Source: a virus
Strand: one strand, 5' to 3'
IMG/VR virus record: IMGVR_UViG_3300027852_000041
DNA length: 64,000 nt
How positions within the stretch are numbered: position 1 is the stretch's first letter; the number at the start of each line of letters is the position of its first letter. This document shows, piece after piece, positions 9,784 through 40,757 of the stretch. A program made the translations under genes and the position numbers. A model generated the notes under the pieces. It had not been told where the DNA came from and made no database searches. It saw nothing but the letters and a program-made list of their open reading frames with translations.

Positions 9784-9987
9784 ATGCCCAACAAACCAAG
9801 AAAATTCATTCGGTATCAAGTCCGCAATAAAAGAAAAATCGTACATGGCGGAATTACCGAAAGAACTATAGAAGAACGATTGGGTGAACACCAACAAAAA
9901 TGGCCTGGCGCTACAATAACGCAAGTTGGGCCAAAAGTTACAGAAGAAACCGCCCGTAAATGGGAAAAGGATAAAGGCTATTCCTAA
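9784..9987 (+). CDS. Small GIY-YIG-like protein (possible free-standing nuclease remnant)
   Basis: 67 aa. Strong RBS AAAGGAG. The pattern IRYQV...KIVHGGITERTIEERLGEH resembles the GIY...YIG...R..EH layout. It is on the opposite strand to all flanking late genes. Confidence 0.4.
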   Translation: MPNKPRKFIRYQVRNKRKIVHGGITERTIEERLGEHQQKWPGATITQVGPKVTEETARKWEKDKGYS

Positions 9988-10172
9988 TCTTTCATAGGCA
10001 TAGCTGTACCATCAAATTTGCCAGTTTCTTTTTCAAAATAATATTCCCGTTTATTAATCGCTAATTTTGTAAAAAACGGGGATACGGATATTTCTATCTT
10101 GTTTCCTGTAACTAAATCTTTGTACTCAAAAGGTTGAATTATTGCTTTTTCCATAACTTCCATTATTTGCAT
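9984..10172 (-). CDS. Hypothetical protein
   Basis: 62-aa ORF. The start codon is uncertain (three in-frame ATGs, weak RBS). Confidence 0.35.
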   Translation of the reverse strand: MQIMEVMEKAIIQPFEYKDLVTGNKIEISVSPFFTKLAINKREYYFEKETGKFDGTAMPMKD

Positions 10173-14110: not shown

Positions 14111-14186
14111 TGGCAGTGGCAGAAGGATTCGAACCTTCGTATATCCGGATCAAAGCCGGATGCGTTAACCTCTTCGCCATGCCACT
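14111..14186 (-). tRNA. tRNA-Gln (anticodon TTG) with encoded CCA
   Basis: Hand-folded cloverleaf. Acceptor AGTGGCA/TGCCACT. Anticodon stem TCCGG/CCGGA with loop CTTTGAT. T arm GAAGG-TTCGAAT-CCTTC. Discriminator G plus CCA. 76 nt. Confidence 0.85.
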
Positions 14187-26545: not shown

Positions 26546-26571
26546 ACTTTTTTAAGAATTGACCCCGCCTG

Positions 26572-26597
26572 CCGGCTGGCGGTAATAGCCGGTTTTT
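26572..26597 (+). terminator. Rho-independent terminator candidate
   Basis: CCGGCT (26572..26577) / AGCCGG (26587..26592) with a 9-nt loop, followed by TTTTT (26593..26597). Confidence 0.5.
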
Positions 26598-26683
26598 CTC
26601 CCTCCTGTTTTGCGGGTTTCCAGGAGCTAAGAACCAAATCCGCGAAAACTTTTTTAGTAATCTTATATAAAAGGAGCTTTAAA

Positions 26684-32944: not shown

Positions 32945-33128
32945 CAAAAGGTTATCAGGAGTCCCTTTATGACTGAAAACGAGTTTGACAGATGCTTCGA
33001 AAAATTATGCAAACGTTGGGGTAAGAAATTCAATGAAGGCCAAGCGGAAATTTACTAATGGCAGAAACAGCAAAAGTAATCCTACTTAAAGGGAATCAAG
33101 GGGCTTAGGCTACCATAACAAATCGTCA

Positions 33129-33589: not shown

Positions 33590-33691
33590 TTATGCCACTT
33601 TGCGCGGGGTGTCGTGAAAAGTCGGTCACAAGCGGGTCGCACCCGATCATGAGGGGGATGACGTCCTTCCGCCCCGTCCAAAGTGGCATAA
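33590..33691 (+). ncRNA. GC-rich structured element R1 (candidate ncRNA or long hairpin)
   Basis: 13-bp perfect closing stem TTATGCCACTTTG (33590..33602) / CAAAGTGGCATAA (33679..33691), extended by GCGGGG/CCCCGT pairing. It is visibly more GC-rich than its surroundings. TTTAAACATTA immediately precedes it. Confidence 0.4.
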
Positions 33692-33734
33692 CAAGCAAGC
33701 TCGTTTTGATGATTAACCACTATAAGGAGGAATT

Positions 33735-33986
33735 ATGAAAATTATCGAAATTACAAGAACGGTTTCAGGTCTTAACTATGACAATATATCTGCAAAAGCC
33801 ACCCTGGAGGATGGGGATGATTTTACCCAAAAGGCCATTGAGCTTGAAATTATGTTACAAAAAGCCCTACAAGAAATTAGCAATAGACAAATTGCCGCAA
33901 GCCAGGCGGCAAGGGAAAAGGATAACACGGTATCGTTGCTCCAAGATGCGTTAGATTATGCCAAACAAAACGACATACCTTTTTAA
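33735..33986 (+). CDS. Hypothetical protein
   Basis: 83 aa. RBS AAGGAGG. Confidence 0.55.
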   Translation: MKIIEITRTVSGLNYDNISAKATLEDGDDFTQKAIELEIMLQKALQEISNRQIAASQAAREKDNTVSLLQDALDYAKQNDIPF

Positions 33987-34663: not shown

Positions 34664-34782
34664 CCAACGGTTGGCTTGACCGGGGAACCCCAAGGCGAAT
34701 TTCGCAGTGTGGGGGTACGAAAAGAGCTTGATCGTGTGAGTTGTTTTGGCAAGTTAGCTTAAATCATTAGGAGGTTTAAAAA

Positions 34783-37229: not shown

Positions 37230-37868
37230 TTGGAAAAAATTATAAAAATCAAGCAAGGCCGGAAGAATAAGTATCAATACCAAAGCATCATTTATGACTC
37301 CAAAGAGGAAATCTGGTTTTTGTGGTATCTGGAAGAGCTACGGGAAGCAGGATTTACCGGAGCAATATTTTATCACCCTCCACCACGGGTTTTAAGCTCT
37401 CCTGTTTCTTATTCCTGGAATAAGCAACTCAAAACAAAAAAGAAGTTAATGCAGTCTCAGTTATTGCCGGGATGTTCATACACCCCTGATTTTTGGTGGA
37501 CATGGGAAGACAAAGCTGAAGGTATTTTTTTTGAAAACATTGAGAGCAGGAACAAACTTCAGCCATTCTTCTGGTCTCAGTATGATTGTTCTCACGTGGA
37601 CATAAAAGGGACCCATTCAATTTATAAAGATTCACGAGAATTTGAAGCTAAGCGAAAATGGGTGTGGTATATATACAACATATATGTTCAAAAAGTAATC
37701 CCAGAGAATTTGTTTAAAACTACTTTCACCCCGGAAAGATTTTTAGTCTGTGATGCCTTGCTTACTCGGAAAAGGGTAATTAAATTTGAGGTTAGGGAGT
37801 TGGGGGAATTTTTGGATGGAGTAAAAGAACGTTACTCGAAAGGAGGAAATAATGGCAATACACTATGA
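37230..37868 (+). CDS. PD-(D/E)xK-like nuclease candidate
   Basis: 212 aa. The layout YDSKEEIWFLWYLEEL ... SYTPDF ... HVDIKG resembles DUF1064/VRR-NUC-type nucleases. TTG start with RBS AAGGAGGGG. Confidence 0.4.
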   Translation: MEKIIKIKQGRKNKYQYQSIIYDSKEEIWFLWYLEELREAGFTGAIFYHPPPRVLSSPVSYSWNKQLKTKKKLMQSQLLPGCSYTPDFWWTWEDKAEGIFFENIESRNKLQPFFWSQYDCSHVDIKGTHSIYKDSREFEAKRKWVWYIYNIYVQKVIPENLFKTTFTPERFLVCDALLTRKRVIKFEVRELGEFLDGVKERYSKGGNNGNTL

Positions 37869-38320: not shown

Positions 38321-38629
38321 ATGAGTAAGTTTAAAATATCAGTAATTGATTTTATCCCCGAAACCGGAAGGCATCCTATTGGTGAGGTCGATTCAAACGG
38401 TGAAGCCATCACGGTTGGTGATATCGTTACCCTGAATGGTGAAAAACATATGGTCGCTTATCGGTACGGTGACTTTGTACTCAAACAGCCGATGACCATG
38501 CACACCCTTGGTATTTCAGATTGGTCTAAAACAACGAAACTAAACGAAATATGGTCAACGCCAGACAATATAGCATGTGGCGATATATCGGAAGCTTTTT
38601 ATAATAGGGTTAAGCATTTGTGTGTATAA
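38321..38629 (+). CDS. Hypothetical protein
   Basis: 102 aa from ATG 38321 (RBS GAGGAGG). Confidence 0.5.
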   Translation: MSKFKISVIDFIPETGRHPIGEVDSNGEAITVGDIVTLNGEKHMVAYRYGDFVLKQPMTMHTLGISDWSKTTKLNEIWSTPDNIACGDISEAFYNRVKHLCV

Positions 38630-38662
38630 CCAGTAATTCCAGCCTTCCCAAACCACGGGCGG

Positions 38663-38677
38663 CTGATTTAACCATTA
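38663..38677 (+). repeat. 15-mer CTGATTTAACCATTA, copy 1
   Basis: Identical copies at 39499..39513 and 40743..40757. Copies 1 and 2 share about 28 further upstream nt (ATTCCAgCC..CC.AAA..CACGG.CGG). Confidence 0.8.
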
Positions 38678-38690
38678 GGAGGAAAATATA

Positions 38691-39001
38691 ATGAAGACTC
38701 CGAGACAACAACTGGATAAATTAGCACGATATTTGATCAATAATCATGGTGATATTGTCTGTGTTGACGATTTATCAAACGAAGAGGCCGTAGATGAAGC
38801 GATCCGAGTAATGGAAGCTTTAACTGCCTTAAATATGAAATGGATCAGCGTAAAAGACGAATTGCCTGACAAATCAGATGATGTTTTACTGTGGAATGGA
38901 GCAGAAAGAGAAATATATCTCTGCTAACGAAAGAACACTTTGAAGCACATTATAAAGACATTACCCATTGGATGATATTACCAGAACCGCCGTCCTTATA
39001 A
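38691..39001 (+). pseudogene. DUF551-like gene split by a frame change
   Basis: Frame A (38691..38927) contains MKWISVKDELPDKSDDVLLWNG and then stops. A second frame continues ...KEHFEAHYKDITHWMILPEPPSL to the stop at 38999..39001, which is the hallmark C-terminus of this family. Confidence 0.45.
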
Positions 39002-39066
39002 CCAAAAAACTTACCCGGCTAAAAAAAGAGCGGGTGATTTTGCAGTTTATGCCATAGGAGGAAATT

Positions 39067-39465
39067 ATGAGGCATCAAGATAAAATCAACTGGATGATTC
39101 AGTGGGCGCACAAAAATAAGTTGCGTCTTGAGCTTGAAGGTGAGTGTGGGTTTGGACGTGAATGTGTCGGAGTTGTCGCAGATACGGTTGGATACCCGGA
39201 TTATGAGTGGTCGGACGACAAAACATGGGAACGCCTCGATGAGAATGGAGAGGTTTGGACACCAGAAGACGCTTACCACAAACACCCCTGCGTTGCGGTT
39301 CTTGGCCGTGGGGTTGATGTGGAGGGGCAGCTTTACGATTGGCTCAAGTGGTTCGAAGCTAATAACTTCGTGGTCGAAACCGGGCAAACCAAAAAGAAGA
39401 ACCTTAATTCAATACATATTATGCTTGGAAAACACAGATATGCCAGAATGGTTAAACAGGCATAA
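39067..39465 (+). CDS. Hypothetical protein
   Basis: 132 aa. RBS AGGAGG. Confidence 0.55.
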   Translation: MRHQDKINWMIQWAHKNKLRLELEGECGFGRECVGVVADTVGYPDYEWSDDKTWERLDENGEVWTPEDAYHKHPCVAVLGRGVDVEGQLYDWLKWFEANNFVVETGQTKKKNLNSIHIMLGKHRYARMVKQA

Positions 39466-39498
39466 CAAATCATTCCATCCGACCGAAAAGCACGGCGG

Positions 39499-39513
39499 CT
39501 GATTTAACCATTA
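39499..39513 (+). repeat. 15-mer CTGATTTAACCATTA, copy 2
   Basis: Directly abuts structured element R2. Confidence 0.8.
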
Positions 39514-39663
39514 TGCGCCAGAAAGAGAAAGATGCTTGCCAGCAACCCCACTGTGCAGGGGAGACCATGACCTTTACCGAACCGGATGGCGCCGGTAGAT
39601 GATGAATATCGCAAAGTAAAGGTGGGCGTTTGAAGCCCTTAAAATCGGGTGCAGTGGCGCATA
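39512..39663 (+). ncRNA. GC-rich structured element R2 (candidate ncRNA)
   Basis: Closing stem TATGCGCCA (39512..39520) / TGGCGCATA (39655..39663). Internal hairpins CCCC-ACTGTGCA-GGGG, CCGG-ATGGCG-CCGG and GGGC-GTTTGAA-GCCC. No ORF longer than 12 codons. A weak AGCTA/TAGCT + TTTTT hairpin follows. Confidence 0.4.
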
Positions 39664-39704
39664 GCTAACAAATAATAGCTTTTTATTAAAGAAAGGAGCC
39701 TACC

Positions 39705-39935
39705 ATGTTAAACTACATCAAAAAAGTTTTCCTGTTATTTTTATTAATTATGTTTTCTGCCGGGGATTGGATAAAAGAACTTTTTATGCCTCGGGAAGAC
39801 AAGAAAAGTCAGAGTGCTTTTTCTCCGGGGATGGTGGTTAAAATAGGGGTAGGCATTTTATTGGGGGCGCTTATGTATGGGGTGAGTTGCCTCTCTTACT
39901 TGTTTTGGAAAATGATATTTTTAATAGGAGGGTAA
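39705..39935 (+). CDS. Two-TM membrane protein
   Basis: 76 aa. RBS AAGGAG. Confidence 0.55.
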   Translation: MLNYIKKVFLLFLLIMFSAGDWIKELFMPREDKKSQSAFSPGMVVKIGVGILLGALMYGVSCLSYLFWKMIFLIGG

Positions 39936-39936
39936 A

Positions 39937-40419
39937 ATGGATTTAGAGTATGCCCGGCACATTTCAAGAAGCGGGATGGAAACAGCGGCTTTTGTAGCAG
40001 AAAGCAACAAAATTGAGGGAATTTTAAGGGATCCTACCATGGAAGAAATCAAAGAACATGATCGTTTTATCAGCCTTCGAGTTATTAAATTGGGAGACTT
40101 AAAGAAATTTGTAAAAATTTGCCAACCCGGCGCTGTCCTTCGAGACAAGTTTGGGATGAATGTGCGTGTCGGTAATTACACTCCCCCAGCAGGGAATCCC
40201 AACATGGGCAAACTTGTATCAAAGTTGCTCAGTACCGCAGGGCTTAAAACTCCCTTTGAATTGCATAATGAGTACGAAACACTGCATCCCTTCACGGACG
40301 GAAACGGGAGAAGCGGCAGGGCTTTGTGGGCATGGAGGATGATGAGAACCGAAGGCAATTATAGCCTTGGGTTTCTGCATTCGTTTTATTATCAAGCTTT
40401 GGAGGCATGGAGGAAATAG
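39937..40419 (+). CDS. fic: Fic-domain protein (minimal, 160 aa)
   Basis: Canonical HPFTDGNGRSGR (nt 40285..40320) fits HxFx(D/E)GNGRxxR. The N-terminal SNKIEG (nt 40003..40020) fits the (S/T)xxxE(G/N) inhibitory-helix motif. Confidence 0.85.
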   Translation: MDLEYARHISRSGMETAAFVAESNKIEGILRDPTMEEIKEHDRFISLRVIKLGDLKKFVKICQPGAVLRDKFGMNVRVGNYTPPAGNPNMGKLVSKLLSTAGLKTPFELHNEYETLHPFTDGNGRSGRALWAWRMMRTEGNYSLGFLHSFYYQALEAWRK

Positions 40420-40467
40420 GTTAAAGCCGTGCCGGTAGTTAAAAACTTTATCTGGGAGAAGAATAAA

Positions 40468-40746
40468 ATGGATGCTCAGGACAGAATAGCACAAGTAAAA
40501 GGGTTGGCAAAAAGTGACAAGGAAGCAATTACCATGTTGCTGTCTTCCTGCGCTGATATGGGAAGCGCAAATGGGGTATTGTTAAGCGTCTCCAAGTTTG
40601 ATGAAGCCGCAGAACTTATCCTTGGTTATTTTTCACAAAGCCACATAATACCCAATATAGGCGACGGTGCCAAAGAGCCTTTGGATTGTAAAGGGATAGA
40701 GATAGGTGGAAACACAATTGCCGGGAAGATTGTACCCCGTACCTGA
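40468..40746 (+). CDS. Hypothetical protein
   Basis: 92 aa from ATG 40468. Its TGA stop is part of 15-mer copy 3. Confidence 0.45.
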   Translation: MDAQDRIAQVKGLAKSDKEAITMLLSSCADMGSANGVLLSVSKFDEAAELILGYFSQSHIIPNIGDGAKEPLDCKGIEIGGNTIAGKIVPRT

Positions 40747-40757
40747 TTTAACCATTA
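40743..40757 (+). repeat. 15-mer CTGATTTAACCATTA, copy 3
   Basis: Identical to copies 1 and 2. Confidence 0.8.

Follow-up and report, generated by a model that had tools for sequence, protein, structure and literature searches.

An intergenic island of about 150 nt, R2, raises the question whether a gap in the early gene array of a phage holds a structured RNA, or whether its inverted repeats could be there by chance. In the window, that is the whole stretch of 64,000 nt of viral DNA analyzed here (IMG/VR record IMGVR_UViG_3300027852_000041), the gap is found where the original prediction placed it, between genes 39067-39465 and 39705-39935 and inside a long run of small rightward genes; it spans positions 39466-39704 and measures 239 nt instead of the 240 nt given. 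The closing stem is likewise present, with TATGCGCCA (39512-39520) and TGGCGCATA (39655-39663) forming a perfect 9-bp inverted repeat, and so are the internal hairpins CCCC-N8-GGGG (39546-39561), CCGG-N6-CCGG (39582-39595) and GGGC-N7-GCCC (39624-39638). The description of the island as GC-rich holds insofar as its GC content is ~0.53 against a window mean of 0.41, yet 100-nt segments of at least 0.56 are common in the window, mostly in genes. The weak terminator-like AGCTA/TAGCT hairpin followed by T5 also exists (39663-39684), but it is not scored as a terminator by the terminator scan and is missing from the related copy described below. On the plus strand of the gap, the promoter/terminator scan returned nothing.

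Single-sequence fold z-scores for R2 are weak (-1.2 and -1.9). The z-score of the island folded on its own is -1.2, with 23 of 200 dinucleotide shuffles folding equally well, and the gap as a whole gives -1.0 on either strand. By our own estimate, a gap of 240 nt would contain ~0.1 inverted repeats of 9 bp by chance. Judged from the window alone, R2 could have a chance origin.

A second copy resides in a related phage, G001 (IMGVR_UViG_3300027852_000003; 67,497 nt, direct terminal repeats, rated complete in IMG/VR), which was located through its large terminase (TerL, 91% aa identical) and is the only close relative recovered. When this record was searched with window 38600-40500, positions 39513-39664 aligned to G001:C1:6567-6714 (minus strand there) with 84% nucleotide identity over 152-153 nt. 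The first homologous base is the A of the closing stem and the last lies just past the stem's 3' strand; the sequences flanking this stretch are unrelated in the two phages. The two genomes are colinear, with 80-86% identity in the structural genes, but homology in the early region is a patchwork of short, mosaic-like segments, and R2 is there the sole similarity for several hundred bases on each side. R2 lies to one side of gene 37230-37868 in the window and to the other side of its homologue in G001, and in both phages its orientation matches that of the early genes. In G001 it occupies a gap of 186 nt, preceded by a gene of 99 aa and followed by one of 92 aa; 15 nt are left upstream and 23 nt downstream, the latter including the next ribosome-binding site. 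The features of R2 and its borders in the window are as follows.

39513..39664, plus strand: R2 element, with bounds set by homology with G001 (84% identity, unrelated flanks)
39513..39520, plus strand: 5' strand of the closing stem P1, AUGCGCCA, pairing with 39655-39662; 8 bp in both copies
39655..39662, plus strand: 3' strand of P1, UGGCGCAU, from the inverted repeat and the consensus fold
39521..39545, plus strand: purine-rich 5' segment GAAAGAGAAAGAUGC..., apparently unpaired, with (A-R-N)-like repeats in both copies
39546..39561, plus strand: predicted hairpin P2, CCCC-N8-GGGG; stem identical in both copies, one change in the loop
39570..39623, plus strand: predicted helix P3, ACCUUUAC / GUAAAGGU, 8 bp, recovered by the consensus fold as well as by the MFE and centroid folds of the window copy alone
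39581-39596, plus strand: predicted hairpin P3a inside P3, ACCGG-N6-CCGGU; stem unchanged, two changes in the loop
39624..39650, plus strand: two mutually exclusive predicted hairpins sharing GCCC 39635-39638, either GGGC/GCCC or GCCC/GGGU
39548..39556, plus strand: long-range helix of 9 bp, an alternative pairing; 5' strand CCACUGUGC with GUGCAGUGG at 39649-39657
39499..39513, plus strand: intergenic 15-mer CTGATTTAACCATTA, abutting R2 and outside the element; three exact copies in the window
39663..39684, plus strand: weak AGCTA/TAGCT hairpin plus T5; not conserved

The original prediction had also tied R2 to the membrane-protein/Fic gene pair that follows it, a linkage that does not extend to G001, where the Fic gene is ~23 kb from the R2 copy. 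The small Fic-domain gene of the window (39937-40419, HPFTDGNGRSGR motif) belongs to the early array; its homologue, G001:29483-29919, is found ~1 kb upstream of the terminase gene and on the terminase strand, without the 76-aa membrane-protein partner. A DUF551-like gene matches at a third place in G001.

The comparison of the two genomes yielded several observations besides R2. The most conserved stretch is window 9978-10161, which is 95.7% identical over 184 nt (structural genes, 80-86%) and falls within a small minus-strand ORF. A second conserved non-coding patch, window 26551-26643, is 83% identical to G001:18331-18425 and sits in a 138-nt gap; with its TTGAC box and a GC-rich hairpin that runs into a stretch of T, it probably represents a junction of terminator and promoter. 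The 420-nt gap that follows a Mom-like gene contains, at window 32969-33058, an ORF of 29 codons with a ribosome-binding site (MTENEFDRCFEKLCKRWGKKFNEGQAEIY) that is 84% identical to G001; as the G001 frame extends further, this ORF may be truncated in the window.

How strongly is the sequence of R2 held? The alignment of the two copies has 122 identical columns out of 152, whereas third codon positions of nine genes shared by the phages are only 0.54-0.68 identical. Against a baseline of 0.64 the identity of R2 has a binomial P of 1e-5, and against 0.68 one of 5e-4. Because even the synonymous sites of shared genes have diverged this far, R2 would be either under purifying selection or recently exchanged; an apparent constraint could also arise if R2 had passed from one lineage to the other not long ago.

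The distribution of the substitutions relative to the predicted fold speaks to the first of these. The stem tests used helices fixed before the G001 copy was seen, namely the four of the original prediction and P3 from the window-only folds. Changes affect 4 of the 42 columns in the four helices and 26 of the 110 elsewhere (Fisher P 0.037); with P3 included, the figures are 5/60 and 25/92 (P 0.003). Furthermore, the changes that do fall in stems are mostly neutral for pairing. Pair 39516:39659 of P1 goes from C-G to U-A in G001, a compensatory change, and pair 39570:39623 of P3 from A-U to G-U. Two pairs are lost in G001, the outermost U-A pair of the closing stem (39512:39663) and one pair of the GGGC/GCCC hairpin. 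Under random mutation, at most two broken pairs together with at least one compensatory pair occur with P 0.04, or 0.007 when P3 is included.

The consensus fold agrees with this picture. RNAalifold gives -40.7 kcal/mol, as compared to -22.4 +/- 3.8 in column shuffles (0 of 500 as good), and the structure conservation index is 0.88 versus 0.60 +/- 0.08 (1 of 500); the z-score from this control is inflated, since column shuffling does not preserve dinucleotide content. The minus strand reaches an equally good consensus fold of -42.2 kcal/mol, whereas the plus strand is favoured by its G.U pairs, which correspond to A.C mismatches on the minus strand, and by the shared orientation of R2 and the early genes in both phages. 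Covariation is thin because there are only two copies, and a compensatory change in some helix of at least 5 bp arises in 79% of random-mutation simulations. Loops and junctions of R2 are conserved in sequence as well. Elsewhere in the element, a UGCU/AGCA hairpin predicted within 39521..39545 is not conserved in G001, and P3 encloses, besides P3a, a 19-nt asymmetric loop.

We then have to consider whether R2 belongs to a family already described. In the whole window, Rfam 15 at gathering threshold matched a single tRNA (14114-14186), and ARAGORN, searching for tRNA and tmRNA, reported only tRNA-Gln at 14111-14186 and nothing at R2. With all 4227 Rfam 15 models, small ribozyme families included, and E-values up to 10, the two R2 copies gave snoRNA/sRNA noise and no common family, so that neither copy matched a riboswitch, any other family or a ribozyme, the last being an idea raised in the original prediction.

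Further copies were sought in several ways. A covariance model built from both copies finds exactly one copy per phage and none in ~100 other loci; one match of 18 bits was discarded, as it was seeded by the scan pattern and is without P1 and P3. Exact seeds run against viral contigs (34-, 16- and 15-mer) and species genomes (20-mer) returned only G001 plus chance matches, which amounts to no further copy in 2.9 million viral contigs (two seed scans) and none in 185,579 species genomes (one seed scan). Neither blastn of R2 against phage and plasmid records nor a search at the protein level with the 73-aa ORF on the opposite strand in G001, used as a proxy for more copies, added any. The gene upstream of R2 leads to 66 loci (14 IMG/VR and 52 metagenome), among which blastn, tblastx and the covariance model detected no island; L015, which comes closest at 79% aa, lacks a gap altogether, its next gene overlapping the stop codon. 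Searches for relatives through the Fic gene and a 395-aa gene found none in the viral or species-genome collections. The upstream gene itself, 39067-39465, encodes 132 aa and has a GC content of 0.51-0.55, above its surroundings. The 66 phage and metagenome loci with relatives of this gene range from 0.40 to 0.64 in GC, identity to Aeromonas phage phiA047 reaches 76% in one patch, and the gene is missing from G001; it looks like a widely travelling accessory gene.

A second island in the window, R1 (33590-33691), had been described as parallel to R2 in its borders. R1 is a long hairpin whose stem is perfect over 13 bp and can be extended to 20 bp; its fold has a z-score of -3.3 (0 of 200 shuffles as good). 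It is traversed by a 48-codon ORF (33592-33738), the end of which overlaps the following gene in an ATGA. The parallel is confined to a 14-mer border, TTTAAMCATTATGC, whose first 11 bases belong to an intergenic motif specific to the window. We rejected a single family comprising R1 and R2: only this border is common, the R2 model misses R1, and R1 has no homologue in G001. For the same reasons, the likeness would mostly reflect a shared insertion context and not shared ancestry.

The border motif itself, the 15-mer CTGATTTAACCATTA, occurs in three exact copies (38663-38677, 39499-39513 and 40743-40757), just before ribosome-binding sites or after stop codons. A 52-nt repeat, 38626-38677 versus 39462-39513 (77% identity), follows stop codons and ends in this 15-mer, and looser variants flank R1 (33583 and ~33703) and appear at 34759 and 42515. 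A seed scan with a 16-mer of the flanking motif found chance matches only, three of them within a coding sequence. Since the motif is absent both beside the G001 copy of R2 and from the whole of G001, it may mark the joints of gene blocks that were recombined into the window phage.

R2 is a discrete unit whose sequence is constrained, which carries no coding signature and whose predicted stems are spared by substitutions, and the proposal that it is a candidate phage ncRNA is supported to this extent. Since R2 is maintained at ~80-84% identity among different neighbouring genes in G001, it probably represents a small structured RNA of a new kind, known from two copies only. We infer that it acts as an RNA through its plus strand, and the same applies to its processing and to any binding partner or target. 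More specifically, positions 39513-39664 would form a self-contained structured RNA module of a family so far undescribed, folding as a domain that is closed by the 8-9 bp P1 and holds three to four internal helices. It would be co-transcribed with the rightward early genes, as the 186-nt gap in G001 leaves no room for a promoter or terminator of its own, and no such signal kept in both copies was found. The module would act without dependence on its neighbours; most likely it would serve either as a processed small RNA with a protein or another RNA as its partner, or between cistrons as an element governing how the transcript is processed or how stable it is. No conserved processing signal was found in R2. 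To this full reading, which joins a new candidate structured RNA with co-transcription in the early operon and independence from the adjacent genes, we assign about an even chance.

A bolder extension is that R2 may be the first member of a new class of phage structured RNAs, functioning as a conformational switch such as a new riboswitch or sensor, as a new self-cleaving ribozyme or as a decoy against a host factor or defence, and constituting a gene-less, stand-alone accessory element that is shuffled among the cassettes of the early region. We hold this to be possible, though doubtful.

The structured-RNA reading has to be weighed against a cis-acting leader, be it a riboswitch, a thermosensor or an attenuator-like switch, whose alternative pairings would control translation of, or read-through into, the downstream gene. 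Such a role would suit a multi-helix junction closed by P1 that in both phages lies 10-40 nt upstream of a ribosome-binding site. It would also suit the mutually exclusive helices in the 3' part of R2, where the GGGC/GCCC hairpin has four changes and a deletion in its loop in G001 and loses one pair through the substitution of G39635 by A, the same substitution that improves the competing GCCC/GGGU hairpin (G.U to A-U), whose loop UUAAAAUC is invariant between the copies. The alternative 9-bp helix 39548-39556/39649-39657 competes with P2, with the GCCC/GGGU hairpin and with the inner part of P1; it is perfect in G001, contains two G.U pairs in the window, and folds that include it are 2.4-4.9 kcal/mol above the MFE. 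The fully switched fold, however, is 19 kcal/mol less stable than the MFE. A further argument comes from five transitions at complementary positions of two UGYGCC and three GNRCA words, which hint at a switch or a pseudoknot. We had taken these five concerted substitutions for strong covariation and downgraded them, since their P-value by simulation is 0.03-0.04 when helices are considered, but 0.25 by columns. The surroundings of R2 do not support control in cis: what follows R2 is a 76-aa membrane protein plus Fic in the window and an unrelated 92-aa protein in G001, the spacer between R2 and the ribosome-binding site differs, and the riboswitch families gave no match. Altogether, a cis-acting leader appears unlikely.

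A site that works at the DNA level is a less probable explanation still. Here the repeats GGCGC (three times) and GTGCA (twice) would bind a protein, as in an origin, a partition-like or a recombination site, or R2 would form a hairpin in single-stranded DNA. All five short repeats are altered at the same relative position in G001, and a concerted change of this kind is typical of binding sites that co-evolve with their protein; the equally good fold of the minus strand is also in line with it. Yet the repeats are two different words that have complementarity as their sole common property, and the substitutions avoid stems and strike loops, which fits pairing better than protein contacts. Moreover, inspection by eye found no complementary pair of attC boxes (RYYYAAC/GTTRRRY) at the ends of either copy, and no recombinase or initiator gene is linked to R2 in both phages.

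That R2 is a selfish palindromic insert (MITE-, ERIC- or REP-like), or a neutral remnant recently exchanged, we regard as improbable. Terminal inverted repeats, sharp borders and the differing positions in the two phages would be expected of such an insert, and the window copy adjoins the repeated 15-mer that may mark gene-block joints and has TA on both sides. Against this, there is one copy per genome, the seed scans and blastn mentioned above found no copies in viral contigs, phage and plasmid records or species genomes, and a transposase is absent. In G001 the TA is not duplicated (CA on the left, TA on the right), and the uneven spread of changes, few in stems and more in loops, speaks for selection acting on the fold.

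That R2 is a small protein gene, intact or decayed, is highly improbable, even though the original prediction of no coding capacity, with longest ORFs of 11-12 codons, overlooked a 29-codon ORF running from ATG 39513 to TGA 39602. The ATG at the left border is kept in both copies, both retain the 29-codon ORF with similar ends (MxQKxKDA...FTxPxGAGR), there is a 50-codon ORF in G001, and on the minus strand R2 is overlapped by two ORFs, of 32 and 36 aa. The ORF survives in both copies because a 2-nt and a 1-nt indel jointly restore the frame. In all other respects the non-coding character stands: the 26-27 substitutions are evenly distributed over codon positions in every frame with no excess at third positions, the indels of 2, 1 and 1 nt disrupt reading frames, and the 60 nt beyond the stop codon are conserved at least as well as the ORF itself. 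No Shine-Dalgarno sequence precedes the ORF, although every called gene of the array has a strong one, its presence having been a criterion of the gene map. The 73-aa opposite-strand ORF of G001 found no match among proteins, and tblastx against the 66 loci gave none either.

Taken together, the observations behind the original prediction are partly confirmed and its interpretation is partly supported. Phage early regions are interpreted almost wholly as series of small accessory genes, and R2, though non-coding, behaves likewise: it is retained while its neighbours turn over, and is conserved better than synonymous sites of core genes. Should R2 prove to function as an RNA, the few structured RNAs known to be encoded by phages would gain a candidate family, and probing, cleavage and binding assays a 150-nt target. 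R2 further illustrates that in AT-rich phage genomes a GC-rich island between genes can flag a real element despite an unremarkable single-sequence fold energy.

How does R2 compare with known systems? It is in no curated family, and attC sites, MITEs, riboswitches, retrons and ribozymes each have a testable defining feature that R2 lacks. Self-cleaving ribozymes were dismissed since neither copy has a hammerhead, twister, pistol, hatchet or HDV-like match, and a CUGAUGA-like stretch in the window copy is not conserved in G001. A retron msr-msd RNA was rejected on the grounds that the downstream genes of the window (76-aa membrane protein, 160-aa Fic) are without a reverse transcriptase domain; the downstream gene of G001 has 92 aa and was judged as a retron partner by size only. 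With integron attC sites R2 shares an imperfect palindrome, an attC-like length and its place at a gene-block joint, but attC sites conserve structure whereas the interior of R2 is conserved in sequence, and there is no array of similar sites. By eye, ATTTAAC is found left of the window copy with no complementary GTTAAAT on the right, and the G001 copy has neither box.

ERIC/IRU, REP/BIME and Correia-type MITEs are transcribed intergenic palindromic repeats within operons, present in multiple copies per genome. R2 resembles the ERIC, REP and Correia repeats in its 100-150 nt, its terminal inverted repeat, its sharp borders and its position between cistrons; it differs from them in being single-copy and in the lack of a target duplication in G001. 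MITEs of the IS630/Tc1 type were likewise rejected: terminal inverted repeats of 8-9 bp are present in both copies, while the TA duplication is absent in G001 and R2 is single-copy with no dispersed copies. R2 is similar to riboswitch aptamers by virtue of P1, the conservation of nucleotides in its junction and loops, the alternative pairings it may form and a location just upstream of a start site; it differs in that no expression platform is conserved, the genes that follow it in the two phages are unrelated and no known class matches.

The nearest parallel is offered by structured ncRNA candidates that the GC-IGR approach recovered from AT-rich genomes by their GC-rich intergenic regions (Stav et al. 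2019, PMC6429828) and by related motif surveys from the Breaker and Weinberg labs (e.g. PMC2864571). R2 has two representatives, whereas published motifs comprise many sequences and statistically supported covariation. Many motifs of this type are of phage or metagenome origin and their function is unknown (PMC6429828, PMC2864571). Like them, R2 occupies a GC-rich, ORF-poor gap in an AT-rich genome (PMC6429828, PMC2864571), spans ~150 nt, is predicted to adopt a multi-helix fold with a terminal closing stem, and is kept across gene contexts.
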